Part shown: one piece after another, positions 33,785-61,299 of the stretch
Position numbering within the stretch: the stretch's first letter is position 1
How the letters are laid out: the number at the start of each line of letters is the position of its first letter
Assembly (NCBI GenBank): GCA_965242865.1
Contig: CBDETK010000013.1
Location: forward strand, 2,368,001 to 2,432,000
DNA from: Candidatus Latescibacterota bacterium
Lineage (GTDB): Bacteria; Latescibacterota; UBA2968; UBA8231
Length of the DNA stretch: 64,000 nt
Direction of reading: 5' to 3'
Translations under genes and position numbers: made by a program
Notes under the pieces: generated by a model
Databases searched by the model: none
What the model saw: only the letters and a program-made list of their open reading frames with translations
Told to the model about the DNA's origin: nothing

Positions 33785-34920
33785 TAGCAATCCGAAATGC
33801 CTTGAAAGGTTAAGGTTTTCTTTTTATGTTGTCATTTCGTTTTCTATCGTCCCTTTTTCAGGAGTGTTTTCAGCTGGTTTCCGATCGTTCTTTATCCAAT
33901 TTTATCGCCAGCAACCCCGACGCCCGTGAACTCAAACGTGCGGTCGCGGTTCAGATGACTCTGTTGGGGGTCAAACAAGGTATGATTCAAGCGGTGCTCG
34001 GCGTTCCGTCGGGGTTCATCCGTACGTGGAAGAAGCGGTATCTATCTGAGGGGGTCGAATGCTTGCGCTTAGGCTATAAAGGCTCGCCGTCCTATTTGTC
34101 GGCTGCTCAGCGGGCGCAAATCACCCGCTGGTTAGCCACCCCATCACAGCCCTCGGTGGCGTCGTTGGCCTCCTATATCCAAACGCAGTTCGGCGTGGTG
34201 TATCGCTCCTCACAGCGTTACTACGCTCTGCTCTCGCAGGCGGGCTATCGTCGGAAGAAGCCCCACGCCCGTTCGTCCCAAGCCGACCCGCGCCAAGGGA
34301 TCGCACGGCGCGCTGAGATAAAAAAAAACTAGCCGCGTATATGCCAGATCTCCAAGCGGGGCGTTTGAGTGCCTTTTTTGTCGACGAGTCGCATCTACAC
34401 TGGGGGGATGCCTGTGGGTATGCTGGGGGCCGGTCCGACCAACGGCTTAGGGTGTGCATGGACAACGCCCGTCAACGCCAGACCTATTATGGGGCTTTGG
34501 ATGTCGTCAAGGGCACCTTCCTGATGCAAAGCGATCCTAAGGCCAACGCGCAGCATACGGTGGACTTTATACGCTCTATACAACAGCGTCGTCCCGGTCA
34601 ACGGTTGTTGATTTTTTGGGATGGAGCTTCCTATCATCGTCAACAGGCCATGCGCACCGTTCTCGAAACGATACAAGCGGACTGCACGCCGGATCAATGG
34701 AAGATATGCTGTATGCGATTGGCCCCTTATACACCGCAAGAAAATCCCGTCGAAGATATTTGGTTAAAAGGGAAAACTTTTGTGCGTACCCATGCCTTGT
34801 GGACTACAAGCTTTGAACAGGTCAAAGACCTCTTTGTCAAGGGAATTCGGCGAAAAAAATACTCCCAGTTCCCTAAGTTACAGCAATATATAACATCTCT
34901 TGAATAATTTAGAATTGCTA
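33785..34920 (+). mobile_element. IS630-family insertion sequence
   Basis: Imperfect TIRs TAGCAATCCGAAAT / ATTTAGAATTGCTA, each flanked by TA; split transposase. Confidence 0.9.
33826..34907 (+). CDS. IS630 transposase; orfA 33826-34332 and orfB to 34907, joined by a -1 frameshift at A9
   Basis: HTH orfA ending EIKKN at A9 (34320-34328); DDE motifs VDES, WDGASYH, NPVEDIW. Confidence 0.88.
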
Positions 34921-35546
34921 TAGCGAAGAAGTTGGTCTTTCTTTTTTTCGACTAGTACCTCGCCGATGACGCTGCTGTTGTATTGAAATCGTGCGCCGAT
35001 AAAACTAGCGGCGGCCAAGCCGTTGGCGAGGGCATCCGGCATTTTGGTCAGTTCGAGATTGCCGTCGCGTTCAATCAGCTCGCCGGAAAACGATAACGGC
35101 TCTTGTTGCGCGGCTTTCTGCACCGTCCCATCGTAGCGCAAGTAGTGCTGGCCAGATGAAGCCGAAGAAGATGATGGATCACTCGGCGGCACCGCGCTCT
35201 GTATTTTGGTGACAAGGGGCTCGCACGGAGCCGATATGGCCAAGGTTCGCTTTGTGGAATCACAGTAACGCGCCTCCAATGTTATGCGTTGGTTGAAGTC
35301 GAGTTTGTGAAAGAGAGCAGATAAATCGGCGAATTCGCGAACTCCATAATTGCGGAAGGTCTGTATTTGCAGGGGCAGTTGCATATTGGCAGAACCAGAC
35401 AAGAGGAATATCGCTTCCAAAATGGAAGTCTTGCCTACGTCGTTTGCGCCGAGCAAGATGTTGAACGTTCCCAAGCCATCGAGATCGAGGCTCGATAGCC
35501 CGCGAAAACCTCTAATTTTGAGCGCGTCCAAGTGTGTGTGTTTCAT
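34921..35546 (-). pseudogene. AAA/ABC-type ATPase gene truncated by IS630
   Basis: 'IRGFRGL', Walker A GANDVGKTSILEA; interrupted at the TA before any Walker B. Confidence 0.8.
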
Positions 35547-43170: not shown

Positions 43171-43745
43171 TCAACGCAGCAGGGTCCTCAACCGATTCAG
43201 CAGTGCTTCGGCGTGCGGACAGGCGTCTTCGACGAGGGCGGGGTCAACCCGCGCCAGCAACTCAAAAGAGACTTTGCCCTTGGCATAGCGCGTAGCGCAA
43301 TTGGCGGTGGCGCGTTTGAGCGCGTCGAGGACCGTCGCCTTGGGGACAGCTTCTAACGGTCGCCATTGCTTGAGCGCGTTCTCCCTAAACTCCGCGCCGA
43401 AATAACGCTTCAATAAATCGCGATCCGCCAAAAGCCAAGTCTCCATGACCTGCACCATCAGAAAGCCTTGGTCTGCGTCAGCGTTTGGCGGACAGTTCCA
43501 GCCATCGCGTGTTTGCAAGTGCTGCCAGACCGAGTACTCCGCCGCAACGGAACTCTCGCTGTCCACTAGGAGAAGCGGTACGCGTTTTGGGTCGGGGCCT
43601 TAATCGCCCTTGCAAAGAGATCAAAAGTTCGCTTGCGTCCGCCTCCACGCACGACTCGCGGCTTAGTCGCCCACGAGCGTCGGAAAAGGCTTTCGAGTTG
43701 CTGGTTTCCGTCTCCACCGCCTTCGATATAGATGACGGCTCTCAC
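43171..43745 (-). pseudogene. DUF4276-like protein, frameshifted near 43585
   Basis: GTG overlapping the ATPase stop gives MRAVIYIEGGGD..PRVVRGGGR; continues in another frame as VPLLLVDSE..MVQVMETWLLAD..YAKG. Confidence 0.7.
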
Positions 43746-44938
43746 CAGCGATTACCGCCGAGCTCTCCCGAACTCCAGAGATCGCCGAGGCTGTACTCGT
43801 GCAACCAAGTTTTCAATCTCGCGCTGTCCAACCGCTCGAACCGCGACTCACCGTTCTCCTGCTCGCACACTACGACGCTCGACGGATGGTCCGACAGCGC
43901 GTCAACCAACATGTGCGAGTGGGTAGTGACCACAATCTGCATGCGCTGAGCGGCATCGACGAGCAATTCCGCAACCTGAGCGACGACATCGGGATGAAGG
44001 CCCAACTCCGGATCCTCAATGGCGACCAAGGAAGGCGGCTCGGGATGCAGTAGAACGGCCAGCAGGCACAGGTAGCGCAGGGTGCCGTCGGACAGGCGGC
44101 TCGCCGGGATCTGACGTCCGCCCCGTTTCTCCAAGAAAAGCGACACCGTCCCACCCGTCACCGGGCAATTGACGTCCACGATGCCGTCAAAGAGTTCCTG
44201 CAACGCCGAGACAAATTTCTGCTTGTGCTCTCTCCGGAAGTGCGACAGCACGAGGGCCAAATTCGTCCCGCCTTCGCTCAGGAAATCGGAGCGGTCATGC
44301 GTACTCTGGTTCTGGCGCAACTCTGCCGCAGGACCGAATGACCAATTTCGATACAGGCAAATGCGCTCGTATTGATTCTGTAGGCCGTGCAGCGCGGGAT
44401 ACGTTTGTGCGTCGCGGACCTGAGACAGAACCGATTCCTCCGGCTTTTCTCTCTCGAGGTTAGTGAGGCCAAGCAGTTCTCCTTCATCGGAAGAAAAAGG
44501 GCGAATCCTTCTCCCTCTTATTCTTCGAGGCTCAGTCTGGCTATCGAACTTGTGAAGTCCATGATAAAGGCGATAGGAGAACTTGGTCCCCGCGCATTCA
44601 ATGCGCTCGTCAGTGACTTCAAAATGTCCACCGTGGTCGGTAAATTCCAGCACGTGTCGTAAGGGACTATCCTTCTTGGGATCGTCAACGGTGACTTCTA
44701 TCGTTGCCTTGTGAGGCGACTCGTCGCCCTTCCAGAACCATTCCCAGATTCCACCACTTCGCTTGATCAGTCTCGCCAGTTCACGCGGCGCAGCCCTCAG
44801 CAAGGCCAGCACTTCGAGCAGGTTGGATTTTCCCGCACCGTTCGGGCCGATCAGGACGTTCAGCGGTTCCATCGGCAGGTCGATCCCCTGCGGCCCGAAG
44901 GACAACAGTCCTGAGACTTTCAGTCTATGTATCATCAA
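43742..44938 (-). CDS. AAA_21-type ATPase
   Basis: GPNGAGKSN; LSDGT; IEDPELGLHP; TTHS. Confidence 0.9.
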   Translation of the reverse strand: MMIHRLKVSGLLSFGPQGIDLPMEPLNVLIGPNGAGKSNLLEVLALLRAAPRELARLIKRSGGIWEWFWKGDESPHKATIEVTVDDPKKDSPLRHVLEFTDHGGHFEVTDERIECAGTKFSYRLYHGLHKFDSQTEPRRIRGRRIRPFSSDEGELLGLTNLEREKPEESVLSQVRDAQTYPALHGLQNQYERICLYRNWSFGPAAELRQNQSTHDRSDFLSEGGTNLALVLSHFRREHKQKFVSALQELFDGIVDVNCPVTGGTVSLFLEKRGGRQIPASRLSDGTLRYLCLLAVLLHPEPPSLVAIEDPELGLHPDVVAQVAELLVDAAQRMQIVVTTHSHMLVDALSDHPSSVVVCEQENGESRFERLDSARLKTWLHEYSLGDLWSSGELGGNRW

Positions 44939-44984: not shown

Positions 44985-47900
44985 TCATCGGATCAGGGCC
45001 ATTTTGCCCACGACGATGTGCGGTCCCGCTACCAGCCGATACAGGTACACGCCGGACGTTACGGGGTGTCCGTGTTGGTCTCGTCCGTCCCAGTAGAAGG
45101 TATGATAGCCCGCTTCCAACGCGGTGTCCACCAAGGTATGCACGACTTGCCCGGCGACATTGTATAGGGTCAGCCGGACGGGGCCGCTGGCGGGTAGCTG
45201 GACGTGTAGGGTCGTGGTCGGATTAAATGGGTTGGGGGCCGCTCGGGCGGCTAGGGCTGCGTCGGGCAAAGCGACCTTGGCCGCGGGGGCTTCTTCGGTC
45301 TGATCGCCTTCGCCTGCCGCAGTCTGCTCGTCCTCGGCGGGTGCTTCCGCAGTCTGTTCGTCTTCGCCTTCGGTCTGCTCGCCCTCGCCTTGGCCCGCCG
45401 CGGTCTGATCTTCTTCGTCGGACTCGTCTTCGTCGGGTACTTCCGCGGTCTCGGTCTCAGGTTCCTCGTCCTCGGTTTCCTCGGCGGGCTCGTCCTCGTC
45501 CTCGTCCTGTGCGGTGCCCGACGCGGCAACGACCGTTGACGAAAGGCGACTCGCTGTCTGCGCGCCAAAAGCGTCTGTATAGGACGCACGCGCCCTAAGC
45601 TTCTTCCCGACCATAGAGCTACCGACCGGCCAAGTGTACGACAGCGACCCGTTGGCCCCTTCAACCTCCGATTCCAAAACAAGCTCTTCGTCGGCAGTGC
45701 CCGACGCGGTAGTAATGGACAACCTCCACCGCAGCCCCGTAATCGGCGTGTCCGGGTCTGAAAGCGTCGCCGTCAGCCTCGAACCCGCCCGCGGCGGATC
45801 GGGCGATAAGGACACACTCCCATCGGTGTTTGTCCGCGGCGCGGCGGTCACCGTTGATGAATATGAACTGGAGGCGGTCTGTGCGCCGAAGGCGTCCGTA
45901 TAGGAAACACGGGCTTGGAGTTGCTTGCCGACCCACGAACTGCTCACCGTCCACGTTTTCGCTGGCAACCCGTTGGCGCCCTCCACGGCTTGCTCCTCCA
46001 CCCAATCGGATTGCCCTTCTGCTCCCGAAGGGGTCCGAGAATGCAAACTCCAACTCACCCCCGTAATCGGCGTGTCTGGGTCTGAAAGCGTCGCCGTGAT
46101 GGAACTACCTGCCTGTGGCGTCGTTGGCGACAGGGACACGCGGCCGGAGGTGTTGGGTTTGACGGGCGTGGCCGAAGCGGACACCGCCGCGCTGGTGCCC
46201 TGTCCGGTGACCGCATGCACCTCGAAGGAGTAGGCCGTGCCGTTGGTCAAGCTCGTCACCGTCTTGCTCGTGGCTGTGCCGGTGCTGGACCAAGAAGACC
46301 AACTGCCGCTGGACGACTTGTAGCGATACTCATAGCGGGTGACAGACGCGCAGTTGCTGCCCGATGGCGCACTCCAAGAAAGCGACACCTGCCCATTGCC
46401 CGGCGACGCCGAAAGCGACGACAGACTACACACCACCGGCGGCGGGGCCGTGATCGGCAACGACTGGTCACTCTGCGCCCGCCGACCCGACCCGTACCCG
46501 TCCGTATAGGAGGCGTACACTCGGATACTATACCCAACCTTCGTACGCGAAATGGGGATCTTCCTCGTCGCCGTGGTGGCGGTGGTGCTGCCGGTGACGG
46601 CCTCGTCTGCGGTCTCCTCGGACGCGCCGGTCGCGCCAAAATAGGCCCAACTCCACGACACCCGACGAATAGACCCATCCGCGTCCGACAGCGTGGCGGT
46701 CATCTGCCCCCCTGCTTGGGGCGGATTCGGCGACAGACTGATGCGGCCGGGCGTGTCGGGTTGCACCGGCGTGGCCGACGCCGACACCGCACGGCTGGTG
46801 CGTGGCCCGGCCACGGCGCGGCCTTCAAAGGAGTAGGCCGTGCCGTTGGTCAAGCCCGTCACCGTCTGGCTGGTGGCCGTGCCCGCACTCGTCCAACTCG
46901 ACCAACTACCCCCGGACGCCTTATAGCGATAATCGTAGCCGGTGACTGTGGCGCAGCTACTGCCCGACGGCGCATTCCAAGAAAGCGACACCTGCTGGTT
47001 GCCCGGCGACGCCGTAAACGACGACGGGCTACATACCGGCGGCTGCGGCGTGGCCTCGGCTGACGCGGCGGTCCCGTCGCCGTAGCTATTGACCGCCCGC
47101 ACCGCAAAGGAATACGCCGTGCCATTGGTCAAGCTACTCACCGTCTGGCTGGTGGCCGTGCCCGCACTCGTCCAACTCGACCAACTGTCGCCAGCGGTCT
47201 TCTTGTAGCGGGATTCGTAGCGCGTCAGCACCGCGCCGCCCAGCTTCAACGGCGCATCCCAAGAAAGCACCACCTGCCCGTTGCCAGCGACCGCATCCAA
47301 GTTTCGCGGCGCACTCGGCGGGCCGACCACTGCCGCGGTCGTGTCGCTGCGCGCCTGTTGGCCACCATGGTCATCCGTATAGGACACCGTCGCCAGAATA
47401 CGCACCCCCAAAAGCACGGCCCGCACCTGCAACGTCGATGACAACGCCGCGCTGGGCGGAGGATCGGCCCCGTTGGCCCCCGACACTCCCGACGCGCTGT
47501 GATACGACCAACTGAAGCGGACATCGGTCGGGTTATCTGGATCGGTCAACGTCGCCGTCAGATCGTCGCCTACCTGCGGCGCGGTCGTCGATAACGACAC
47601 ACGGCCCTTCGTATCCGACGGAGCTTCCGGCGTGGCCGACGCCGACACCGCACGGCTGGTGCGTGCCCCGGCCACTGTACGCACTTCAAAGGAATAGGAC
47701 TGGCCGTTGGTCAAGCTCGGCACGGTCGCGGTCGTCGCCGTGCTGGGGCTGGACCAATCCGACCAACTGCCGCCAGCCGCCTTGTAGCGGTATGAGTAGC
47801 CGGTCACCGTGGCGCAAGTGCTCCCCGATGGCGCATTCCAACTCAGGGATACCTGCTCGTTGCCCGGCGACGCCGTAAACGACGACGGACTACACACCTC

Positions 47901-50900
47901 GGTCGGCGTCGCCGCCGCCGAGGCAACCGTGCCGTCGCCGTAGCCATTGACTGCCCGCACCGCAAAGGAGTACGGAGTGCCGTTGGTCAAGTCCGTCACC
48001 GTCGCGCTCGTCGCCGTGCCGGCACTCGTCCAGTTCTCCGGCCAGCTACCGCTGGTCTTCTTGTAGCGGTACTGGTAGCTGGTGATCGCCGAGCCGCCGA
48101 TTTTCAAGGGCACTTCCCAAGCAAGCGCCACCTGCCCATCGCCGGCCGTCGCCGTAAACGTCCGCGGCGCCCACGGCGGCCCCACCACCGCCGATGTCTT
48201 GGGGCTTTGCGCCTGCTGCCGACCATAATCATCCGTATAGGACACCCGCGCCCGGATCTGCAACCCCAAATGCACTGTGCTTACCCGCAACGGCTCCGAC
48301 TGCACTGCGCTGGGCGGCGGATCGGCTCCATTGGCCCCCGACACCCCCGCCGGCAGGAAAAACGCCCAAGTAAACCCCACATCGGTCGGGTTATCCGGGT
48401 CGGTCAACGTCGCGGTCAAGTCGTCGCCGACCCGCGGCGTGGTCGTCGAGAGTGCCACACGCCCTTTGGTGTCCACCGGCAACGTCACCGTATCCGTCCG
48501 CGTCGTCGCCGACCATCCCCCGCCGTTGCGTGCCCGCACTTCAAACCGATAAGACCCCCCATCCACCAGCGGATGCCGCACCGTAAACGACCGCGTCGTT
48601 GCCGCTGTGCCCATGGACAGCCATCCCCCCCCACGCGGTGATCGGCTCCAAAATCTGGCCCCGCTTATACTGCCACTCGGCGATGCTGGTGTGCGTCGGC
48701 CCGGTCCACCGAAGCGTCGCCTGTCGGATGCCCGGCGTGGCCGTCAAGCCCGTGGGCGCGCCCGGTGGCGGTTGCACCCCCGCCACCCCCGGCAGCGTAT
48801 CCGACCAGGCACTCACCGTCTCGCCTACTCGCGCCCGCACTCGGTAGCGATAGCGGCGGTCGGCATCCACCCCTGGATGCACATAGGGCTGTGCGCCGTG
48901 GGCCTGCTGCGTCGTCCACGCCGAAGGCCACGACCCGCCGTCATACGGCTTGCTCTGCCCCTCCACCTCATAGCCGGTCGCCGACGCCACCGCCGACCAA
49001 GCAACCTTCAGTGCCGGACCCGCCTGCACTGAAACCGAACCGCCCGTGGGCCGAGCCAACCACGGCGTGACCGTATTGCTCACCGCCGAAGGCCGCCCGC
49101 CGCCGGCCCCATTGACCGCCCGCACTTGAAACCGATAGGCTTGACCCGCCGTCAAGCCTTCTACCGGGGCCGACCACCCCGCCACGGCACTACCGCTGAC
49201 CGTCGCGTCCTGCCAGTCCCCGTCCGTATCGGCCCCCTCCGCCGTCACATCCCGATACCGCCACTTGATGATGCTGGCGTGATCCGGCCCCGTCCACCGC
49301 AGCGTCGCCTCGCTCGCCCCGGCCTCGGCGGTAAACCCCGTCGGCGGACCCACCCCGGGCTGAACCCCCGCCAAAGGCTCCGCTGCCGACCACCCACTCT
49401 CCAACTCACCTACTCGCGCCCGCACCTGATACCGATACAGGCTATCCGGCGACACCCCCCGGTGAACATACCGCCGCTGGCCGACGACCTCAGACGCCAA
49501 TGACGTCCACGTTGAAGGCCATGTGCCGCCATCAAAGGGTTTGCTCTGCCCTTGCACCGCGTAGCCCGTCGCTGCCGCCACCGCCGACCACTCCACCCGA
49601 ACCTGCGTCCACCCCGACCGAAACGACACCTCCGACGGCGCAACCGGCACACCGACCACCGCCCGACTTGGATCACTTGCGGACATCCGTTCCGTGTTGG
49701 GATCGTGCCCATCGCGGTAGCGCACCGTCGCCTGCAACTGCCAACCCACATCGCCCGACACCGGCGTGTAGCTCGATAGCTCAGGATACGCCGAGGCCGC
49801 ACCCGACACCGACGATGAAGCCCCCGACACCCCGGCCCCAATCGCTTCCCATGTTCCCGTTGTGCCCAACCGACGCTGCCACTGCCAAGACGCCCCGGTA
49901 ATCTGCCCATCCGGATCGGTCAACCCCGCCACCACCCTCCGACCCACTTCCGGCGGCAGCCCCCCGTCAGCACCACCTCCCCATCCTCATTCTGATTGAC
50001 GACCGACACCGACACCCGCAGGCTGTCCGACAGCACCGCGTCGGAGACCTTCACCCACACGTCGTAGCGCGCTTGGGCTTCATAATCGGCCGCATTCGCC
50101 AAATGGAGTTCCCGCGATGGCTCCGCCCCCGGCGACGCCGGCTCCTTCAATTCAAACGCACTCGCATCCGTGCCCGTTACGCTCCACGTCAGATCGTCGC
50201 CATCCGGGTCGCGGCCGATATAAGTGCCCAACAACCACGGGGCGAGGCTGTTTTCGGCTATGTCCACCGACGCCGGACCCGACACCGACGGGGCACGGTT
50301 GGAGGCCGGGCGCACCGGCGAAGTCAAAGCACTCGTCGCCGACGCTGCACCAAAAGAGTCTGTGTAGTCGGCTTGGAGGCGCAGGGACTGCCCTACGCGG
50401 CTGCTGGGGATGGTCAGAGTCCACGTCTGCGTCGCTTCTGACGCCGGCCCGGTTACACCGCCGCCGTCCGAGGCACCCTCATAGTGGGGCGTCCAATACA
50501 CCGGCTCTGCAATCCCATCTTCGTCCGACAACGTCGCCGTGAGGGATTCCTCCGCTCGCGGCGCGGTCGTCGAAAGGCTAACGACACCGGCATCGTTGGC
50601 ATCGGTAACCGACACGGTAACCGACACGGACACGTCGCCGATGGACACCGACACCGCGTAAGTGTTGTTCTTGCCAGCGTCGGCAGGCTGCTCAAAGTTG
50701 GGAGGAGGATCCTTGAACTCGAGGGGGCGCGATGTCCCCTCCTCTTTCAACCGAAAGAAGCGCGCATCCGTCCCCCCCAACTTCCACGACAACGCCGAAC
50801 CACACCCCGCACTCGCCGTGTACGTGCCTACCGCCCCAAGGGCGTTTTCCGCAAATGTCGGAGCCGTCGCCCCCGTCAGCGAGCAGACCGGTGCCCGCGG

Positions 50901-53900
50901 CGTCACCGCATCGCTCACCGCCGACGGCTGGCCATCCCCCGCTCCATTGACCGCCCGCACTTGAAACTGATAGGCTTGACCCGGCGTCAAGTTGTCCACC
51001 GTGGCCAACCACTCCGTTGAGGCACTACCGCTGACCGCTGCGTCCTGCCAACCCCCCCGCGTATCGGCCCCCGCCGCCGTCACATCCCGATACTGCCACT
51101 GGGTAATACTGGCGTGATCTGGACCCGTCCACCGAAGCGTCACCTGACCAGCCCCCGCCGCCGCCCGAAACCCCGTCGGAGCACCGACGCCGGGCTGGAC
51201 CCCGGCCGCATCCGGCACCAGAGCCGACCACCCACTCACCGACGCACCCGCCCGCGAGCGCACCTGATACCGATATAGGCTATCCGGCGACACGCCCCGG
51301 TGGGCATACCGCAGAGCGGTGATGTTGGTCGCCAATGACGACCAAGCCGCCGGCCAAGGGCCCCTATCAAAGGGTTTGCTCTGCCCCTGTACATCGTAGC
51401 TCGTCGCCGACGCCACCGCCGGCCACTCCACCCGAATACGGCCCCACCCAGCCGTCACCGACGCGGCCGGAGGGCCGAACACCGCCGCACTCGTGAACCC
51501 CTCGGCACGTTTGTTGGGGCCATGATTGTCGGTGTAATGCACCGACGCCCGCAGGTAATAGCCTACGTCCGACGCTGGGGGCGTGTAGCTCGAAAGTTCG
51601 GGATAATTGGTCGTCGCGCCAGTCGCACCAGCGGGCACGGACACGGGTTGCCACGAGGCGGTATCGCTCGCCCAGCGATGCCAAGCCCAACTCGCCCCGG
51701 TGAACGTCAGCCCCTCGTCCGGATCGGTCAGACGCGCCACCAACGGAACCCCTACCTGCGGTGGCTGTGGCGACAGTGCCACCGAACCGGCTTCCTCCAC
51801 ATTCACCACCGACACTGTGACCAACAGGGTGTCCGACACCGCCCCATCACTCGCGCCGGCGGCCCCACTCAAGGGCACATCCCGAACCACCACGCCAACA
51901 TCGTAGGTCGTTTTATACCCGCCGCCCGCCAACGGCACCTCATAGTTGGGTGGCTCCCGAAACTGCAAGGTGCGCTCGTGGCCAGCGTTGCCCGACGTTT
52001 GAACCAAAGTGAAACTGCTCGCATCGGCCCCAATCAAAGACCACACCGGCGCGTTTGGATTCGGATCGGTGTTCCGGTAGACGCCGACGGCAACCGGATC
52101 GGTGGCATTTGGATCGGTGACTTCATTCACCGATGGCTTCGCCGCCCCTTCAATCCTCTGGGAGAGCAAGTCAACCGTCGCCGAGGCCGCCTGTCCCTTC
52201 TCATTATTCGTGGTGACCGCCCGCACCTTGAAGGTATATATCCTGCCGCTCAAGTCCTCAATCGTGGCCGTGATTGTGTCATTGTCATTGTTCTTAGTCC
52301 AATCAAGCTCCGACCAAAGCTCGTTCTCGTCTTCGTCAAGACTCCCGTCGCTATACTCATAGTCGGTGATTGTCGCCCCATTAGAGGCCGGCTCCGACCA
52401 ACTCAAATTCACCTGCTTCGCAACCGTTGCTGTTGCCGTCAAGTCCGTCGGTGCCGAAGGAATAAAGCGAATATCGACGCTCACCACCCCATTGGTTTGC
52501 CTAATGTTCCGCACCGCGATCCCTGTGAACACATCCTGAATATTGCCATTGTAGCCCGCTGTCGAGGGGTTGCTATACGGCGTGAACTCCTTGCCAGGAA
52601 CCCATACATCGGTCGAGTCGCCTATGTTGCCGTTGTGATCCGCTGTGTAGGTCGAGTCCGCCGACCAGTAATCCAGATTATCGCCGCCTACCGTAGAGTC
52701 CGGTTTATTGCTAGGGAATCCCTTATCAGTAAAAAGTCCGTCGGCGCATTCCACATCAACGCGCTTGTGCTTTTCGTTTTGGTTGATATCGGATGTGGAA
52801 CCGTTGACCCTAACAATGGAATCGTCAATGTGCCAGATCAACAACCCGCTCCGCGGCAAGAAGTCATCGTAGTAGCTACCAGTACCACTCTGCCGATTGG
52901 ACAACAGGAAATACTCGTCGCTTCTACTAGGCACCTCGATCTTGTACACCTTGCCATTATCAGAGTTGATGTCGGGGATGGTTACCGTCGTGTCAGACGA
53001 CACGGTCTCTACTTTACTATCTAGCCAGCCCACCTCAGCCCGCGACCACGCCGACAGGGGAGCCGGGCCGTCTGCAATACCCTCTACCCGCATGTAGCCC
53101 TCGCCCCCGCGGCCCATCACCCCCCAGTAGCCAATGCCAGCACTCTGAAAAGGATAACCAGCAACGCCGGTAGAGTCTTGAGAGGTGGATCGAATATGCG
53201 TCCGGTCATAGAGTTCGGGTAGCCCCATCGCATGCCCGTACTCGTGCGCCAGCACCCCCACCATGAAAGGAAAACGGTTATTCCAATCCGACGTAATGAC
53301 CTTGTCAACTACTGTCCCATCACTTGCGGTCCAACTGAAACCGGGACTCTCTAGAACTGTCCCATCGTAACGGCACGCTTTATTACCTATCCCAGGCGGC
53401 GTAAACACGACGACCATGTCGGCGTCTGCAAAATTAATATCAGAATCCGCGTCAGCACTGTTGAGCACAGCACGGGTAAAAGCTCTCACAGCAGCCGACC
53501 AAGCTGAAAGCGTACAGCCGCTGCCAGGGCCCCAAGTAGGCTTACTGGTGCCTTCATACCATTTTTTTAAAATATCGACGTTGGTGCTTGCCAAATGCAG
53601 CCTCCCATACGACATCTCTTTGAAATAGTGTGCCAGACTGCCCACAGCTGTCGAGTCCACAAGCTGAGTGCTGCGACGGGTCGTATTACCGTCTCGATCT
53701 GAGAATTTGTAAGTATTCAGATTCCTTTCATCCGCTTCGCCCGCAAACTTCCCAAACAGAATCAGCAACTTGATCGGATCCGCCGCCGTGCTACTCCGGT
53801 AATTACCGGCGTGAGACGATAGACCCGTCACCCCTGCCCCATCAAGACCATATCCACATACAAAGTCTTGACCATGTACGGTCACTGCATACAGGCTTAA

Positions 53901-53924
53901 AAGCATGAAGACGCGAAAAAGCAT
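44985..53924 (-). CDS. Cassette A: giant M6 metalloprotease-FN3/cadherin-like protein with FlgD-Ig C-terminus (2979 aa reconstructed; two opposite 1-nt indels)
   Basis: ORFs 49920-53924, 48541-49947 and 44985-48614 are collinear with the unbroken paralog 55025-60211. HEYGHAMGLPE; FN3 'YRFQVRAVN'; acidic linker; 'PNPFNP..WDGRDQHG..SGVYLY'. Confidence 0.85.
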
Positions 53925-54054
53925 AATATCCCTCCCAAAAGAGCTTGTGTGCCGATGGCCTGCTCCATATAATAAATGATAACATAAGATAAGGGAAAAG
54001 CCGCGGTCAATGGAGACCTTCCGTCTTATTCCTCTTCAAAAGGAGTTTGGCCCT
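53925..54054. promoter_or_regulatory. AT-rich divergent promoter region of cassette A
   Basis: Shares AAAAGAGCTTGTGT, ATAAGGGAAAAGCC and TTCCTCTTCAAAAGGAGTTTG with 60212-60339. Confidence 0.65.
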
Positions 54055-55053
54055 ATGGTAACTCAACGAACCCGTCTAGTAGTTCCCTTGGTGCTGTGCG
54101 CCCTGTTGTTGCCCTCGTCCTCAGACGCTCAAGACGAAGGCGGCTTTGAGGGAAGCCCAACAGATTTTCTCCCATTGCAGGTCGGTAATCAGTGGACCTA
54201 TACGCACTGGTATACCAACGGCCTTTACAACAGATTTGAAATCGTAGAGGGGGTCGTAAGACAATATGCCGGATGGGGAATAAAAGCTTCATATGATCCC
54301 TTGGGCCCCGAGTGGACATGGATACAGGCGATAGCAGAGAAATCCGGGTATCCTTTAACCACTCAGTATGATCTTGAATCACCATTATTCGACCTCCTCT
54401 CTTATATCGAGCTCGAGCTAACCATTGAAATTACCCATACCGAGACGATTGAGGGCCATACGTATTTTGTCTTTAGCGAGCCAGCCTACGATTGGCCACC
54501 CGTGCCAAACCTCTGCTTGGCCGGCCAGAAGGTGCGCTTCTCCGATGCGGGTGTTCTACTCATTCGCAGGAAAGAGCAAGACATCCCCGTATATGACTTT
54601 GCTCAGGCTCATATCGACAAGGACTATACCACGCCAACATATCCTGTGCTATATGACGCACACGCTCCGGTCGCGCTACCACTTGCAATTAGTCGTTCCT
54701 CTTGGGATGCAAGGCAGAGACACACTTGGCGTTGGTTTTATCCTCCTCCATTAAAGTTCGGTCCGGCATTCGTCTCTTATTTTAATGTACGGATGCTATG
54801 GGTGCGGATAGAGCATAATAATTTTGGCTCGCCTTGGTTAGGTGACGTTTATTTTTTAGCAAACTATGGGCTCGCCCGATACGAACTATTTGAATCAGGG
54901 CTTGGTTGGGCTCGAGTCTTTGAGAATTCTCTTGCGCCGGTTTCGGCGGTTATTGGCGGCAAAGAGATCGCCTATCCCTATGTTTTTGTTGGGACCAGTG
55001 TCCAGCCTACCTCTTGGGGCCAACTCAAAGCGCGTCACGGGCAGGAGCCATAG
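54055..55053 (+). CDS. Cassette A partner: secreted hypothetical protein with TSWGQLK tail
   Basis: RBS AAGGAG; signal peptide; 'DFLPLQVGNQWTY'; ends TSVQPTSWGQLKARHGQEP. Confidence 0.85.
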   Translation: MVTQRTRLVVPLVLCALLLPSSSDAQDEGGFEGSPTDFLPLQVGNQWTYTHWYTNGLYNRFEIVEGVVRQYAGWGIKASYDPLGPEWTWIQAIAEKSGYPLTTQYDLESPLFDLLSYIELELTIEITHTETIEGHTYFVFSEPAYDWPPVPNLCLAGQKVRFSDAGVLLIRRKEQDIPVYDFAQAHIDKDYTTPTYPVLYDAHAPVALPLAISRSSWDARQRHTWRWFYPPPLKFGPAFVSYFNVRMLWVRIEHNNFGSPWLGDVYFLANYGLARYELFESGLGWARVFENSLAPVSAVIGGKEIAYPYVFVGTSVQPTSWGQLKARHGQEP

Positions 55054-58000
55054 GGCTGCCGCTCTCATAGAACATTGACGACTGCACTGCGCTGGGCGGC
55101 GGATCGGCTCCATTGGCCCCCGACACCCCCGCCGGCAGGAAAAACGCCCAAGTAAACCCCACATCGGTCGGGTTATCCGGGTCGGTCAACGTCGCGGTCA
55201 AGTCGTCGCCGACCCGCGGCGTGGTCGTCGAGAGTGCCACACGCCCTTTGGTGTCCACCGGCAACGTCACCGTATCCGTCCGCGTCGTCGCCGACCATCC
55301 CCCGCCGTTGCGTGCCCGCACTTCAAACCGATAAGACCCCCCATCCACCAGCGGATGCCGCACCGTAAACGACCGCGTCGTTGCCGCTGTGCCCATGGAC
55401 AGCCATCCCCCCCACGCGGTGATCGGCTCCAAAATCTGGCCCCGCTTATACTGCCACTCGGCGATGCTGGTGTGCGTCGGCCCGGTCCACCGAAGCGTCG
55501 CCTGTCGGATGCCCGGCGTGGCCGTCAAGCCCGTGGGCGCGCCCGGTGGCGGTTGCACCCCCGCCACCCCCGGCAGCGTATCCGACCAGGCACTCACCGT
55601 CTCGCCTACTCGCGCCCGCACTCGGTAGCGATAGCGGCGGTCGGCATCCACCCCTGGATGCACATAGGGCTGTGCGCCGTGGGCCTGCTGCGTCGTCCAC
55701 GCCGAAGGCCACGACCCGCCGTCATACGGCTTGCTCTGCCCCTCCACCTCATAGCCGGTCGCCGACGCCACCGCCGACCAAGCAACCTTCAGTGCCGGAC
55801 CCGCCTGCACTGAAACCGAACCGCCCGTGGGCCGAGCCAACCACGGCGTGACCGTATTGCTCACCGCCGAAGGCCGCCCACCGCCGGCCCCATTGACCGC
55901 CCGCACTTGAAACCGATACTCGCGCCCCGGCGTCAAGCCCTCTACCGTAGCCACCCACTCCGTCGAGGCACTACCGCTGACCGTCGCGTCCTGCCAATCC
56001 CCATCCGTATCGGCCCCCTCCGCCGTCACATCCCGATACCGCCACTGGGTAATACTGGCGTGTTCCGGCCCTGTCCACCGAAGCGTCACCTGACCAGCCC
56101 CCGCCGCCGCCCGAAACCCCGTCGGAGCATCAACGCCGGGCTGGACCCCGGCCGCATCCGGCAGCGGGTCCGACCACTCACTCACCGCCGCATCTGTCCG
56201 CGAGCGCACCTGATACCGATACAGGCTATCCGGCGACACCCCCCGGTGGGCATACCGCAGAGCGGTGATGTTGGTCGCCAATGACGACCAAGCCGCCGGC
56301 CAAGGGCCCCTATCAAAGGGTTTGCCCTGCCCCTGCACATCGTAGCTCGTCGCCGACGCCACCGCCGGCCACTCTACCCGAATACGGCCCCACCCAGCCG
56401 TCACCGACGCGGCCGGAGGGCCGAACACCGCCGCACTCGCCGCACTCGCGGCCGTCCGTTCCGCGTTGGGATCGTGCCCATCGCGGTAGCGCACCGTCGC
56501 CTGCAACTGCCAACCCACATCGCCCGACACCGGCGTGTAGCTCGATAGCTCAGGATACGCCGAGGCCGCACCCGACACCGCTGATGAAGCCCCCGACACC
56601 CCGGCCCCAATCGCTTCCCATGCTCCCGTTGTGCCCAACCGACGCTGCCACTGCCAAGACGCTCCCGTAATCTGCCCATCCGGATCGGTCAACCCCGCCA
56701 CCACCGCCGTGCCCACTTCCGGCGGCAGCCCCCCCGTCAGCACCACCTCCCCATCCTCATTCTGATTGACGACCGACACCGACACCCGCAGGCTGTCCGA
56801 CAGCACCGCGTCGGAGACCTTTACCCACACGTCGTAGCGCGCTTGGGCTTCGTAATCGGCCGCATTCGCCAAATGGAGTTCCCGCGACGGCTCCGTCCCG
56901 GGCGACGCCGGTTCCTTCAATTCAAACGCACTGGCATCCGGGCCTGTTACGCTCCACGTCAACTCGTCGCCATCCGGGTCGCGGCCGATATAAGTGCCCA
57001 ACAACCACGGGGCGAGGCTGTTTTCGGCTATGTCCACCGCCGCCGGACCCGACACCGACGGAGCGCGGTTGGCAGCCGGGCGCACCGGCGAGGTCAGCGC
57101 ACTCATGGCCGACGCCGCGCCAAAAGAGTCCGTGTAGTCGGCTTGGAGGCGCAGGGGCTGCCCCACGCGGCTGTTGGGGATAGTCAGCGTCCATGTCTGC
57201 GTCGCTTCCGACGCCTGCCCGGTTACGCCGCCGCCATCCGAGGTGCTCTCATAGTGGGGCGTCCAATACACCGGCTCTTCAATCCCATCTTCGTCCGATA
57301 GCGTCGCCGTGAGGGATTCCTCCGCCCGCGGCGCGGTCGTCGAAAGGCTAACGACACCGGCATCGTTGGCATCGGTCACCGACACGGTCACCGACACGGA
57401 CACATCGCCGATGGACACTGACACCGCGTAAGTGTTGTTCTTGCCAGCGTCGGCAGGCTGCTCAAAGTTGGGAGGACGCTTGAACTCAAGCATCCGCGAC
57501 GTGCCCGTCCCTTGCAACTCCGCAAACGCACTCGTATCCGTCCCCTCCAACTTCCACGATAACGCCGAACCACACCCCGCACTCGCCGTGTACGTGCCTA
57601 CCGCCCCAAGGGCGTTTTCCGCAAACGTCGGATCCGTCGCCCCCGTCAGCGAGCAGACCGGCGCCCGCGGCGTCACCTCATCGCTCACCGCCGATGGCTG
57701 GCCGTCCCCCGCTCCATTGACCGCCCGCACTTGAAACCGATAGGCTTGTCCCGGCGTCAAGGCGTCCACCGTGGCCAACCACTCCGTTGAGGCACTACCG
57801 CTGACCGCTGCGTCCTGCCAACCCCCCCGCGTATCGGCCCCCGCCGCCGTCACATCCCGATACTGCCACTGAGTAATACTGGCGTGATCTGGACCCGTCC
57901 ACCGAAGCGTCACCTGACCAGCACCCGCCGCCGCCCGAAACCCCGTCGGAGCACCGACGCCGGGCTGTACCCCATCCGCATCCGGCACCAAGGCCGACCA

Positions 58001-60211
58001 CCCACTCACCGACGCACCTGTCCGCGAGCGCACCTGATACCGATACAAACTATCCGGCGACACCCTCGTGTGCGTCTCCCGCCGAAGCGACGACCTATTA
58101 TTGGGGATCCGGCCAGCGGTGTTGGTGGCCAGCGACGACCATGCCACTGGCCAAGGGCCCCTATCGAAGGGTTTGCTCTGCACCTGCACATCGTAGCCCG
58201 TCGCCGACGCCACCGGCGTCCAGTCCACATGAATCCGGCGAAACCCAGCCGTCACCGACGCCGACGGAGCCGACGGCACCGGCGTCGCCGCCGCGGAAGC
58301 CCACCCACCTGACCCCGACGCGTTGACCGCTCGCACCTCAAACGTGTACAGCGTACCGGCCGCCAACCCCCCCACTATCTGGATACGGGCCGTGGAGCCT
58401 TCAGCCACCGGCGTCCGGGCTGTCCATGTGCGCCCCCCATCAAGGCTCTGACGATACTCATACCCGGTGACCGCTGAACCCCCATTGGGCATCGGCGCGG
58501 CCCAACCCAGTGTCACCTGACCGGCACCCGCGTCCGCCCGAAGGTTCTCCGGCGCCAGAGGCAGAAAGACGATGTCGGCCTGCATCACCCCGTTGGGCCG
58601 AGCCTGAATGTTCCGCACCGCGATCCCTGTGAACTCATCCTGCAGATCGTCGCTATAGTTATTCCTCGTACCATTGTTACTGTAGCCCGCTGTCGAGGGG
58701 TTGGACGTCGGCGTGAACTCGCCAGAAGTCCACACATCACCCGCGTCGCCTAGGTTGCCCCGGTGCTCATCCCGCCAATCCTTGTCGTCCCCCGTCCAAT
58801 AGTCCAAGTTGTCCCCGCCAGATTCAGTATTCTTTGTTGGGATAAGGGTAGTGCTAGTCGTACCAGGAGCCGCATGATCCCAAAGCCCATCAGCGCACTC
58901 TACATCAACGCGCTTATGCTCTTCAATCGCATTGACATCGCTTCTTGAATAAGGATTTATATTACCTTGTGTTATGATAGGGCGATGGGGTTTTACGTCG
59001 TCGTCGATGTGCCAGATCAACAGCCCGCTCGCCGGCGCGTGGGTGTCGTAGTAGCTGCCAATACTACTCGCTGTCCCGTTATATGTATTCTGCCGGTTAG
59101 ACAACAGGAAGTACTCGTCACTTTTACTAGGCACCTCAATCTTGTACACCTTGCCATCATCGGAGTTGATATCGTGGATTTGCAGGGTCTGATCTCCAGC
59201 CACAGTATCCAACCGGTCATCCGTGGGACTATCTGTGATCCAGCCCACCTCTATCCGCGACCACGCCGACAGGGGAGTAGGGCCATCTGGAACACCCGCC
59301 TGCTTCACGTATCCGTCGGCACCTTTACCCATTACCCCCCAGAAACCAACGCCGGCACTGTGATTATCATAATCGGTACGGCTAACGCGAATGTTGGTGC
59401 GGTCATAGAGTTCGGGTAGCCCCATCACGTGCCCATACTCGTGTGCCAGAATCCCCACTAAAGAGGGGAAGCTGTCAACTTGATCTCCCGTGATGATCGT
59501 TTCCACCGTTATCTTGGCTTTGGTAGGATCATTATCAATGTAATCATTAGTTGAGTGACTGAGCTCGTAAAAAACTGTCCCATTGACTTTGCACAAATCG
59601 CCAAAATCACTCGGAGTAAGTACCGCGACTAGGTCAACCTTTCCGTCCCCATCGCCATCATAGTCGTTAAAGTCAACGTCAGTATCGGCAGCTCGGACCA
59701 CGTCCAAAGCAAAATCTTCTACAGCATCCGCCCAGCCTCCCACACCACGACCATCAGGACCGAGACAATCCGCCGCTGTTCTAAGACCATAGTCGGCCCG
59801 CGTCGTTTTTGTCATGGACGACACATACACCGTTCCCGCAACTGTTTCGCGGTTGGGAGCCTTAAACGACAACTTCCCATACGACATTTCGTTCAAAAAA
59901 TGCGGCAAGCTGCCCGTATGACTTGGATTAAAGAGGTCCGTGATGGATTGATAATCGTTCGCAGCTCGAGTTCGACCGTAGAGTTGCTCAAAGTTTATGC
60001 CACTCGCAACATCCTTGAGCTTCCCCACCAAAAGCAACACATGGACCGGCTCGGTCCTATTGGGGTCAACCCCACGGTAGAAGTCAATATCCGCATGGTG
60101 GGCAGACGTGCCCGACACATCTTCCCCGGCAAGACCAAACCCGCATACAAAGTCTTGGCCATATACGCTGGCAGCATACAGGCTAAGTAGAGTGAATACA
60201 CGAAAAAGCAT
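55025..60211 (-). CDS. Cassette B: M6 metalloprotease-FN3/cadherin protein, 3'-truncated
   Basis: Signal peptide; QDFVCG; HEYGHVMGLPE; stalk homology ends near 55080. Confidence 0.88.
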   Translation of the reverse strand: MLFRVFTLLSLYAASVYGQDFVCGFGLAGEDVSGTSAHHADIDFYRGVDPNRTEPVHVLLLVGKLKDVASGINFEQLYGRTRAANDYQSITDLFNPSHTGSLPHFLNEMSYGKLSFKAPNRETVAGTVYVSSMTKTTRADYGLRTAADCLGPDGRGVGGWADAVEDFALDVVRAADTDVDFNDYDGDGDGKVDLVAVLTPSDFGDLCKVNGTVFYELSHSTNDYIDNDPTKAKITVETIITGDQVDSFPSLVGILAHEYGHVMGLPELYDRTNIRVSRTDYDNHSAGVGFWGVMGKGADGYVKQAGVPDGPTPLSAWSRIEVGWITDSPTDDRLDTVAGDQTLQIHDINSDDGKVYKIEVPSKSDEYFLLSNRQNTYNGTASSIGSYYDTHAPASGLLIWHIDDDVKPHRPIITQGNINPYSRSDVNAIEEHKRVDVECADGLWDHAAPGTTSTTLIPTKNTESGGDNLDYWTGDDKDWRDEHRGNLGDAGDVWTSGEFTPTSNPSTAGYSNNGTRNNYSDDLQDEFTGIAVRNIQARPNGVMQADIVFLPLAPENLRADAGAGQVTLGWAAPMPNGGSAVTGYEYRQSLDGGRTWTARTPVAEGSTARIQIVGGLAAGTLYTFEVRAVNASGSGGWASAAATPVPSAPSASVTAGFRRIHVDWTPVASATGYDVQVQSKPFDRGPWPVAWSSLATNTAGRIPNNRSSLRRETHTRVSPDSLYRYQVRSRTGASVSGWSALVPDADGVQPGVGAPTGFRAAAGAGQVTLRWTGPDHASITQWQYRDVTAAGADTRGGWQDAAVSGSASTEWLATVDALTPGQAYRFQVRAVNGAGDGQPSAVSDEVTPRAPVCSLTGATDPTFAENALGAVGTYTASAGCGSALSWKLEGTDTSAFAELQGTGTSRMLEFKRPPNFEQPADAGKNNTYAVSVSIGDVSVSVTVSVTDANDAGVVSLSTTAPRAEESLTATLSDEDGIEEPVYWTPHYESTSDGGGVTGQASEATQTWTLTIPNSRVGQPLRLQADYTDSFGAASAMSALTSPVRPAANRAPSVSGPAAVDIAENSLAPWLLGTYIGRDPDGDELTWSVTGPDASAFELKEPASPGTEPSRELHLANAADYEAQARYDVWVKVSDAVLSDSLRVSVSVVNQNEDGEVVLTGGLPPEVGTAVVAGLTDPDGQITGASWQWQRRLGTTGAWEAIGAGVSGASSAVSGAASAYPELSSYTPVSGDVGWQLQATVRYRDGHDPNAERTAASAASAAVFGPPAASVTAGWGRIRVEWPAVASATSYDVQGQGKPFDRGPWPAAWSSLATNITALRYAHRGVSPDSLYRYQVRSRTDAAVSEWSDPLPDAAGVQPGVDAPTGFRAAAGAGQVTLRWTGPEHASITQWRYRDVTAEGADTDGDWQDATVSGSASTEWVATVEGLTPGREYRFQVRAVNGAGGGRPSAVSNTVTPWLARPTGGSVSVQAGPALKVAWSAVASATGYEVEGQSKPYDGGSWPSAWTTQQAHGAQPYVHPGVDADRRYRYRVRARVGETVSAWSDTLPGVAGVQPPPGAPTGLTATPGIRQATLRWTGPTHTSIAEWQYKRGQILEPITAWGGWLSMGTAATTRSFTVRHPLVDGGSYRFEVRARNGGGWSATTRTDTVTLPVDTKGRVALSTTTPRVGDDLTATLTDPDNPTDVGFTWAFFLPAGVSGANGADPPPSAVQSSMFYESGSPMAPARDAL

Positions 60212-60339
60212 AATATCCTCCTAAAAGAGCTTGTGTACCGGTGTATTTTCATTGTATATATATCATATCTTAACATAAGGGAAAAGCCCGGTCAATGTTG
60301 GCCTTCAGTCCCGTTCCTCTTCAAAAGGAGTTTGACCTA
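60212..60339. promoter_or_regulatory. AT-rich divergent promoter region of cassette B
   Basis: Homologous to 53925-54054. Confidence 0.65.
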
Positions 60340-61299
60340 ATGGTAACTCAACGGACGCGCCTCGTGGTCTCGCTGATGCTATGCGCCCTATTGGCCCCGC
60401 CTGCCACCGCGCAGGAAGAAGGAGGCTTTGAGGGAAGCCCAACCGATTTCCTTCCGTTGGAAGTAGGTAATCAGTGGACTTATACGCACAGGTATTCTAA
60501 TAGGGTTTACGGCAGCCACGCGGTCTTTTTCGACTACGCATACGACTTGGATGCCTTTGATCCTTTGGCCTTGCTAATTGATCGGCTGACGATGGAGATA
60601 CCTGGGTATCCTTTATCTCCCGGTTTGGCAGATTCGGTAAAGCCACTTGACGACCTCAGATCCCCCGGCGCACGAGAGCTAACCATTGAAATTACTCATA
60701 CCGAGACGATTGAGGGCCATACGTACTTTGTCTTTAGCCAGCCAGCATACGATTGGCCGCCCGTGCCTACTCTTTGCTTGGTTGGCCAGAAGGTGCGCTT
60801 CTCCGATGAAGGGGTGCTACTCATACGCCAGCCGGAGCAAGACATTCCCCTATATGACTTTGCTCCGCCTTATAAATATGACTTTGCTCAAGTTCATGGC
60901 GACAAGGACTATACCACGCCAGCATATCCTGTGCTATACGACGCACACGACCCGGTTCGACTACCACTGCGTGTACGTCGTTTCTCTTGGGACGCAAGAT
61001 TGAGAATCCGTTGGCCTTTGTTTTATCCCCCCCCAAGGAGCTTCGGGCCGGCCTTCGTCACTCGTTTTACTGTTAACCCTGGATTGGGGAACGTTTATTT
61101 TCTAGAAAACTATGGGATCCTCGGATACAGTATATGGTACCCAGGGTGGGATAATGTTGCAATCTTTTCAAATTTTCTTACGACGGTTTCGGCGGTTATT
61201 GATGGCAAAGAGATCTCCTACCCCTATGTTTCTGTAGAGACAAGGGTTCAATCTACCTCTTGGGGCCAACTCAAAGCGCGTCACGGGCAGGAGCCATAG
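60340..61299 (+). CDS. Cassette B partner: paralog of 54055-55053
   Basis: Same conserved blocks; ends TRVQSTSWGQLKARHGQEP. Confidence 0.85.
   Translation: MVTQRTRLVVSLMLCALLAPPATAQEEGGFEGSPTDFLPLEVGNQWTYTHRYSNRVYGSHAVFFDYAYDLDAFDPLALLIDRLTMEIPGYPLSPGLADSVKPLDDLRSPGARELTIEITHTETIEGHTYFVFSQPAYDWPPVPTLCLVGQKVRFSDEGVLLIRQPEQDIPLYDFAPPYKYDFAQVHGDKDYTTPAYPVLYDAHDPVRLPLRVRRFSWDARLRIRWPLFYPPPRSFGPAFVTRFTVNPGLGNVYFLENYGILGYSIWYPGWDNVAIFSNFLTTVSAVIDGKEISYPYVSVETRVQSTSWGQLKARHGQEP

Follow-up and report, generated by a model that had tools for sequence, protein, structure and literature searches.

What does a secreted protein do when its gene sits beside that of a giant protease? A 64,000-nucleotide stretch of a Candidatus Latescibacterota genome (contig CBDETK010000013.1, positions 2,368,001 to 2,432,000; hereafter the window) raises this question twice. 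Two paralogous genes, encoding the secreted proteins partner 1 and partner 2, each lie divergent from a gene for a giant M6-type metalloprotease. The linkage between the partner family and such proteases is strong and recurs across the phylum. By analogy with a known system, it is plausible that each partner is the cognate of its giant neighbor, binding the protease head and keeping it in check as an inhibitor would, a reading to which we assign a probability of about 0.38. The genes concerned, with lengths in amino acids (aa), are these.

54055..55053, plus strand: partner 1, a 332-aa secreted open-barrel protein (longest open reading frame (ORF) starts at 54010; P0001, 347 aa)
60340..61299, plus strand: partner 2, a 319-aa paralog of partner 1 (longest ORF starts at 60295; P0002, 334 aa)
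49920..53924, minus strand: giant 1 (P0004, 1334 aa), with a type-1 M6 head at about residues 1-497, HEYGH at 227 and a fibronectin type III (FN3)/cadherin-like stalk
55025..60211, minus strand: giant 2 (P0003, 1728 aa), with a type-1 M6 head, HEYGH at 257 and FN3/cadherin-like repeats
61271..64000, minus strand: giant 3, represented here by its 3' part only (2206 aa in all), with an HEWGH type-3 head that lies past the window
53925..54054, no strand: AT-rich intergenic DNA from which the genes of head 1 and partner 1 diverge (equivalent in pair 2: 60212-60339)

Each partner gene faces one protease gene at its start and meets another at its end. Giant 1 diverges from partner 1, and giant 2 from partner 2, across about 130 base pairs (bp) of AT-rich DNA, where promoter-like sequences on the minus strand (54010-53981 and 60295-60267) are consensus matches only. 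The 3' ends of partner 1 and giant 2 overlap tail to tail by 29 bp, as do those of partner 2 and giant 3. The giants begin with a signal peptide, followed by an M6-type head and then by FN3 and cadherin-like repeats. P0004 scores 25.6 bits against PF05547, above the cut-off of 22, and 96.3 bits (E 2.8e-27) against TIGR03296, whose cut-off is 110.8; P0003 falls below both cut-offs (PF05547, 20.5 bits; TIGR03296, E 1.1e-28) and matches fn3 at E 2e-46. In the head motif, HEYGHxxGLPxxYD, residues H227, E228, H231 and D240 are invariant or nearly so across the head alignment, and the head homologs are named M6 by their sources. We read the window heads as predicted M6-type metalloproteases with an HExxHxxGxxD zinc site.

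Partner genes keep company with protease heads well beyond the window. We collected 75 partner genes, 14 from the source genome and 61 at 40 loci from other genomes of the phylum, and 43 of the 75 adjoin a giant M6-type head, usually just upstream of it. Nine of the 14 source-genome members lie beside an HExxH head (six upstream on the same strand and three divergent), and every giant beside a family member in that genome has such a head. Heads fall into type 1 (HEYGH), type 2 (HEIGH; TIGR03296 E 2e-7 to 2e-12) and type 3 (HEWGH). For 30 of the 61 members from other genomes the head is the next gene downstream on the same strand (14 type 1, 14 type 2, two type 3), and for four it is adjacent in another orientation. 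Measured from longest-ORF starts, on which these figures depend, the gap is zero or negative in 11 of 12 pairs with a type-2 head and 1-98 bp in 10 of 11 pairs with a type-1 head. The same adjacency is seen in different genera and in three of the phylum's families.

Partner phylogeny follows head type. A quick maximum-likelihood tree of the 75 partners, with no rows dropped and a more careful search unfinished, separates two deep clades with support of 100. Clade one holds 18 type-2-linked genes, one type-3-linked gene, no type-1-linked genes and 15 unlinked genes, and clade two holds 19 type-1-linked genes, one type-2-linked gene (the distal gene of a tandem pair), one type-3-linked gene and 20 unlinked genes. 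None of 200 shuffles of the head-type labels clustered as tightly on this tree as the real ones. Because close kin share labels, the result speaks for a match between partner clades and head types only at the deep level. Together, the adjacency in 43 of 75 cases and the match between clades and head types sustain the specific tie to a protease that the initial annotation had proposed from the two window genes.

The linkage may extend to another peptidase class. In another family of the phylum, a 232-aa member lacking the C-terminal tag described below lies 206 bp upstream of a 1403-aa S8 subtilase that carries FG-GAP repeats and a FlgD_ig tail (L076 6470-11586). No head-partner fusion turned up among proteins of 609-2000 aa, which is weak evidence. 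One apparent fusion (L079) was set aside: the reading frame of a head fragment there continues into a partner gene, and the latter still has a signal peptide of its own.

The two window genes probably start inside their longest open frames. These frames, both on the plus strand, span 54010-55053 (347 codons) and 60295-61299 (334 codons) and are probably about 15 codons too long. The Shine-Dalgarno sequence AAGGAG lies 8-9 nucleotides ahead of the ATG at 54055, likewise ahead of the ATG at 60340, and a 332-aa database entry is 100% identical to partner 1; for these reasons the true lengths are most likely 332 and 319 aa. The start at 54055 given by the initial annotation, with AAGGAG before it, is therefore the better one. 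Both proteins have an N-terminal signal peptide (MVTQRTRLVV...A/Q[DE]E, with the slash at the cut) that looks like Sec-type export with signal peptidase I cleavage. Read by eye, it ends ...SSSDA/QDE or ...PATA/QEE, with a family consensus of PAxAQ. Also by eye, no lipobox ([LVI][ASTVI][GAS]C) is present in the signal peptides of P0001, P0002 or the family consensus.

By sequence searches, the partners appear to form an undescribed, Latescibacterota-restricted family of Sec-exported proteins, about 280-350 aa long and at the longest about 560. The initial annotation had recognized no family, and neither P0001 nor P0002 has a Pfam or NCBIfam match at E <= 1. At the same threshold, none of 109 members matches the relevant Pfam families, including PF21347 and PF11306; scans of the source genome with those two families matched no member, and a sequence search of solved structures gave nothing better than E 0.91. 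A 5.8-billion-protein index yielded 202 relatives about as long as the partners; every one is unnamed or 'hypothetical' and comes from Latescibacteria-type metagenome-assembled genomes (MAGs), two of them labelled Gemmatimonadetes. An exhaustive profile search of 1.84 billion cluster representatives returned only 269 at E <= 0.001, and the 10 loci among species genomes are all in Latescibacterota MAGs, one labelled Gemmatimonadetes. Within the phylum the family occurs in 32 of 168 genomes, including 28 of 75 in the window's own taxonomic family and 17 of 30 in its genus; the source genome holds 14 clear members and one weak one. Literature searches on DUF3108 found nothing on the family, nor did searches on Latescibacter with sponge, FN3 or metalloprotease, or on the type IX secretion system (T9SS) with peptidase inhibitors, among the matches listed.

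The nearest named candidates for relatives are DUF3108-like proteins. Two PF21347 proteins of the phylum share with the family an N-terminal motif, D-[YF]-[FL]-P-[LI]-x-[VI]-G-N-x-W-x-Y. With hhalign, alignment A1 of the family matches these two at 65% probability (E 6e-5, 200 columns), and a single PF21347 protein at only 25% over 16 columns. In a protein atlas, the nearest named cluster to both clades carries PF21347 DUF3108_like (score 0.76-0.77), which is a lead only. The profile link to DUF3108_like is weak, and the comparisons do not establish membership in any described family.

Both subfamilies are modelled with confidence as an open beta-barrel. An AlphaFold2 model of partner 1 built on a 109-sequence alignment is all-beta, with a predicted local distance difference test (pLDDT) score of 82.1 and a predicted TM-score (pTM) of 0.77; a second model, of a short subfamily (59 sequences), has a pLDDT of 76.7. 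Both are barrels of about 12-16 strands with a mature size of about 290-310 aa, and both have as best solved match 4fvs_A, the putative lipoprotein BDI_3050, with VIA-align Z values of 9.2 (root-mean-square deviation (rmsd) 5.6, 174 aligned) and 8.6 (rmsd 4.6, 167 aligned). Foldseek matched the second model to 4fvs_A at E 1.2e-3 (probability 0.99) and found no match at E <= 0.001 for the first; it also gave 3fzx (BF2203, YmcC-like) at probability 0.63-0.69 and LppX at E 3.3e-3. We take 4fvs and 3fzx to be PF21347 members. Next in structural rank come DUF1849, vitellogenin/ApoB barrels and 12-stranded membrane barrels. Many LolA, LolB, LppX, LprG and RseB chains match at Z 4.5-7, values barely above the level that VIA-align itself calls common, autotransporter and porin barrels match at Z 5.5-7, and a Riemerella haemophore at Z 5.5.

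We suggest from these models that the family is a divergent open barrel of the LolA/YmcC/DUF3108-like kind. As modelled, it resembles the LolA/LolB/LppX/LprG/RseB superfamily in its unclosed barrel with helices on the open face and differs in sequence, with no match to the LolA/LolB superfamily in Pfam, NCBIfam or solved structures; it is also larger, tagged and protease-linked. With two PF21347 proteins of the phylum it shares the N-terminal motif, and its models match 4fvs best, but its members do not match that family in Pfam. DUF3108-type families are domains of unknown function, and so no mechanism transfers from them. An outer-membrane barrel was considered and rejected: most strands are 4-10 residues long, and the terminal aromatic signal is absent.

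Conserved and variable blocks alternate along this barrel. P0001 and P0002 are paralogs (BLASTP, 216 of 356 identities, 61%, E 9e-136, 31 gap positions), and all four motifs that the initial annotation quoted as shared occur in both. Their alignment divides as follows.

Residues 44-70: block C1, P0001/P0002 identity 24/27
Residues 71-135: block V1, identity 15/66, 9 gap columns
Residues 136-195: block C2, identity 53/60
Residues 196-258: block C3, identity 45/71 (63%)
Residues 259-305: block V3, identity 14/47, 13 gap columns
Residues 306-347: block C4, identity 33/42

Identity of 79-89% in C1, C2 and C4 against 23-30% in V1 and V3 agrees with the alternation of constant and hypervariable blocks first described for this pair. 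The variable segments had also been called aromatic-rich with indels: indels do fall in V1, C3 and V3, but aromatic residues are not concentrated there, making up 14-15% of each whole partner, 12-24% of variable blocks and 10-22% of constant ones. The contrast lies in amino-acid change and not in overall divergence, because the proportion of nonsynonymous differences (pN) between P0001 and P0002 is 0.05-0.06 in C1/C2 and 0.40-0.53 in V1/V3 while that of synonymous differences (pS) is alike, at 0.32-0.59. When 109 family members are aligned, the commonest residue has a mean frequency of 0.75-0.82 in C1/C2, against 0.22-0.38 in V1-V3; since the same blocks are conserved or variable throughout, alternation is a property of the whole family and not a peculiarity of the window pair. 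In the partner 1 model V1 forms a small meander and two helices. The model and the 109-member profile uphold the scaffold that the initial annotation had envisaged, with variable inserts and loops; the variable blocks track the head no more closely than the constant ones do, as we discuss below.

Selection and recombination both appear to shape this pattern. We estimated the ratio of nonsynonymous to synonymous substitution rates (dN/dS) by pairwise Nei-Gojobori comparison of the three closest paralogs, a crude measure given poor V-block alignments and dS approaching 1. It is 0.04-0.26 in C1 and C2, a sign of purifying selection on the core, 0.30-0.56 in C3 and C4, and 0.73-1.38 in V1 and V3, with one further value of 3.8 from just 34 codons. 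Over its last 42 codons partner 1 has the same DNA sequence as a paralog at genome position 2442220. In V1, partner 1 resembles the unlinked paralog 696975 and partner 2 the 2442220 paralog, and in paralog comparisons the protease heads are mosaic like the partners. We therefore ascribe the alternation to constraint on the core, rapid change in the inserts and gene conversion between paralogs, three causes in all.

Both partners end in a conserved tag that many otherwise unrelated proteins share. In the window it lies here.

54994..55050, plus strand: tag of partner 1, TSVQPTSWGQLKARHGQEP
61240..61296, plus strand: tag of partner 2, TRVQSTSWGQLKARHGQEP

The tag reads TSV[EQ]xxSWGx[ILV]K, followed by 3-8 further residues to the chain end. 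W336 and K340 are invariant in the 109-sequence alignment, and the partner 1 model places a short helix (336-342) there on a low-confidence linker. Among 4494 greedy gene calls of the genome there are 73 occurrences of WGx[ILVM]K, 59 of them within the last 25 residues. Aligned on the tryptophan, these 59 proteins give [PAG]-T (46/59)-S (33)-V/I (52)-E/Q (40)-x-x-S/T (53)-W-G-[QR..]-[LIV]-K; the chain ends 8-13 residues past the tryptophan in 54 of the 59, and 52 have an N-terminal hydrophobic stretch. The 59 carriers form at least eight groups unrelated by BLAST (for example C13:62181-63206 and 4740899-4741852). The largest group has 21 members, one with a CBM9-like match; 16 carriers are the barrel partners and their relatives, five are proteins of about 224 aa, one with beta-helix/NosD-like matches, and several further groups are small. 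Among the carriers are lectin-like, FGE-like and beta-helix proteins. In other genomes 51 of 61 family members carry the tag. Literature searches for tag strings such as SWGRIK found none. We propose the tag as a candidate new sorting or docking signal.

Tagged proteins also occur in other settings. Type-3 giants are preceded by tagged proteins of 232-257 aa, paralogous to the N-terminal ~230 residues of the giant itself (C13:2435909-2437374, just past the window; L052, L057 and L087), an arrangement that makes a second kind of pair between a small tagged protein and a giant. Long members of the barrel family (429-494 aa: barrel, about 150 extra residues and tag) lie between a two-domain peptidyl-prolyl isomerase (PPIase) and a protein of about 950 aa (L056 2276-11117, L058, L059, L067 and C13:1540204-1542376). 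The ~950-aa family has no Pfam match and 37 ORFs in the source genome.

Among known systems, the potempins and KLIKK peptidases of Tannerella forsythia come closest (PMC9890683). Potempins are beta-barrel proteins encoded directly upstream of T9SS peptidases; their stop codons overlap or fall within 5 bp of the peptidase start; and they are co-transcribed with the downstream peptidase, inhibit it and share a sorting element (PMC9890683). The family described here likewise places a barrel gene upstream of a peptidase with stop and start overlapping or nearly touching, pairs one partner type with one peptidase type, includes orphan copies, meets more than one peptidase class (M6-like heads and one S8 case) and has a sorting element common to diverse partners, a signal peptide there and a C-terminal tag here. 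Unlike potempins, which are 98-132 aa long with a 5-stranded OB fold or an 8-stranded up-and-down barrel, our partners are 280-350 aa, up to about 560, with an open LolA/YmcC-like barrel. Potempins are outer-membrane lipoproteins, whereas the partners lack a lipobox and any anchoring would be via the tag. The family here also occurs away from proteases, and the window pairs are divergent rather than bicistronic.

PorP/SprF proteins, the partners of type-B T9SS cargo, offer a second comparison. There too, a gene for a protein of some 300 aa accompanies that of a giant surface protein secreted by the T9SS. The family's strands are too short for a membrane barrel, and its gene lies upstream of the giant's N-terminal head, whereas the SprF gene lies downstream of its cargo. 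Neither P0001 nor P0002 matched PorP/SprF, presumably PF11751/TIGR03519, in Pfam or NCBIfam at E <= 1.

A T9SS is present in the genome, with a SprA homolog at E 1.5e-144. FlgD_ig-type C-terminal domains match there 149 times, and full-length head homologs end in such a domain (PF13860). In the window only the leftmost giant reaches one (about 45030-45212, C13:2413030-2413212), and only when two frame breaks are read through into the following feature.

44985..49947, minus strand: continuation of giant 1 past its frame breaks, as two FN3 ORFs of 468 and 1209 aa

The breaks lead from P0004 to the 468-aa ORF and on to the 1209-aa ORF (49920-49960 and 48541-48614), and the P0004 tail departs from the P0003 sequence at the frame break. 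A type-2 giant further on has two frame breaks of its own (L013 about 14300-16200). Contigs of other runs show a net +1 indel at 49937-49959, a comparison confounded by paralogous repeats; the breaks may reflect misassembly or variation between strains. Four giants of the tandem array, giants 2 and 3 and the type-2 giant among them, lack a T9SS C-terminal domain and end at one common point, ...ESGS(P)MAPARDAL*, about a dozen residues into an FN3 domain and antisense to the partner 3' end (55025-55053 and 61271-61299; L013 14157-14351). Since the giants end at an identical junction, the units appear to have been copied in tandem after a single truncation.

How might a partner act on its giant? 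In the reading we prefer, partner and protease would be made together, either from an operon in which the partner comes first and the stop and start codons often overlap, or from a shared divergent promoter region. The conserved blocks would be the strands of the open barrel and the variable blocks its inserts and loops. The partner would bind the protease head and keep it latent or out of reach of the producer's surface proteins, with barrel loops occupying the active-site cleft as potempins do on the KLIKK peptidases of Tannerella, and the tag would hold the partner at the cell envelope or route it there. The block pattern would reflect constraint on the core, relaxed or diversifying inserts and gene conversion among tandem paralogs.

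A number of observations weigh against this inhibitor-like reading. Five of the 14 source-genome members are orphans, and 27 of the 61 elsewhere lie beside no protease head: five of these sit upstream of the ~950-aa family and after a two-domain SurA-like PPIase, and the other 22 have neither a head nor that family nearby. Three other M6 homologs in the source genome have no barrel partner, the window pairs are divergent rather than an operon, and giants 2 and 3 lack the T9SS domain. Peptidase inhibitors are not known to have the predicted fold, whose solved relatives bind lipids or lipoproteins or have no known function. The initial annotation had expected the variable segments to track a variable protease, and they do so no more than the constant ones: across 15 type-1 pairs, one not strictly adjacent, Mantel correlations between partner and head distances are 0.56 for variable and 0.53 for constant blocks. 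Such similar values indicate linked descent, with no sign that the variable blocks specifically follow the head. Of the dN/dS contrast that it had proposed to examine, the constrained core stands, while V-block values of 0.73-1.38 fit relaxed constraint as well as diversifying selection; much of the block pattern also appears to be mosaic gene conversion among tandem paralogs. Its phrase 'immunity protein', taken in the toxin-immunity sense, is without support, and we rejected a toxin-immunity system: the giants are N-terminal proteases on adhesin-like stalks, with no C-terminal toxin domain seen.

Type-1 heads may also carry a latency element of their own, a further point on the same side. 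Right after the signal peptide they read QDFVCG, with F21 and C23 in at least 90% of 25 sequences, and Cys23 of P0004 is encoded at window positions 53856-53858. Mirolysin is reported to have a cysteine switch at Cys23 (PMC8259862), and by analogy the type-1 Cys23 may be such a switch. Mirolysin, though, has both a cysteine switch and a potempin.

Other readings account for part of the same evidence. The partner might be a surface binding subunit, whose barrel captures a substrate or product (a peptide, lipid or hydrophobic ligand) and, much like SusD, hemophores or TbpB, passes it on to either the protease or an outer-membrane barrel, with variable inserts setting the ligand range. This would fit the cassette position that members share with CBM9-like tagged proteins (after the PPIase, before the ~950-aa family), the tag held in common with lectin-like, FGE-like and beta-helix proteins, the lipid- or lipoprotein-binding fold relatives with the Riemerella haemophore at Z 5.5, and variable blocks that do not specifically track the head. 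The clade/head-type match and the tight stop/start overlaps point to a specific protease tie rather than a common ligand, and we find the idea doubtful. We also hold it unlikely that the partner is a periplasmic carrier or export helper, a LolA-like chaperone that escorts or primes the very large downstream protein, whether T9SS giant or outer-membrane barrel. In favor of such a role are the resemblance to the LolA-superfamily fold (Z 5-6.5), the SurA-like PPIase neighbor in barrel cassettes and the fact that downstream genes share only very large exported products; yet a conserved tag common to lectin-like and enzyme-like exoproteins suggests that the partner is itself cargo, fast-evolving inserts would be unusual in a housekeeping chaperone, and PotA of the analogous system is reported to be dispensable for secretion (PMC9890683).

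At one extreme, partner and protease might have no direct functional tie, the partners being an amplified tagged surface family duplicated along with the giants, and the variable blocks reflecting surface diversification under phage or host pressure. Tandem units copied as blocks with a shared junction, mosaic gene conversion in partner and head alike, and the 27 of 61 members elsewhere without a head neighbor are what it would predict. Adjacency that recurs across genera and three families of the phylum argues the other way, and the clade/head-type match and overlapping frames are hard to obtain from co-duplication alone; we consider it improbable. At the other extreme, the partners could be one arm of an undescribed, phylum-specific envelope sorting system, in which the 16-residue tag routes or docks dozens of unrelated small exoproteins (barrel partners, lectin-like and enzyme-like proteins) to the giant next door, be it a T9SS protease or an outer-membrane protein of the ~950-aa kind. 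Matched pairs of a small tagged subunit and a giant would then make up the cell surface, and the subunit of the protease pairs would be a new class of large beta-barrel peptidase inhibitor. We offer this as speculation, with odds well short of even.

The window holds further genes apart from the giant array. A Pnkp/Hen1 RNA repair pair occupies 19166-23231 on the minus strand, comprising an 897-aa Pnkp kinase-phosphatase-ligase (PNKP_ligase E 6e-163) and a 459-aa Hen1 methyltransferase (Hen1_L E 8e-109). At 12492-18594, minus strand, a 686-aa leucine-rich-repeat protein lies beside a 1354-aa He_PIG protein with a FlgD_ig tail, another surface pair with eukaryote-like repeats. Near the giants, AAA_21/AbiEii-type and AAA_15 ATPase genes (43742-44938 and 34878-35546, both minus strand) may be defense or mobile-element remnants.

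The system looks like the theme of a peptidase with an upstream barrel partner played on a different fold, with the tag as a possible new sorting signal. If partners do bind and restrain the heads, the potempin principle would extend past one oral pathogen to another phylum of the same superphylum, and to an unrelated, much larger fold on giant stalked M6 proteases of sponge-associated bacteria. It would give the DUF3108-like barrel its first function, and it would provide a handle on how uncultured symbionts control proteases at the host interface.

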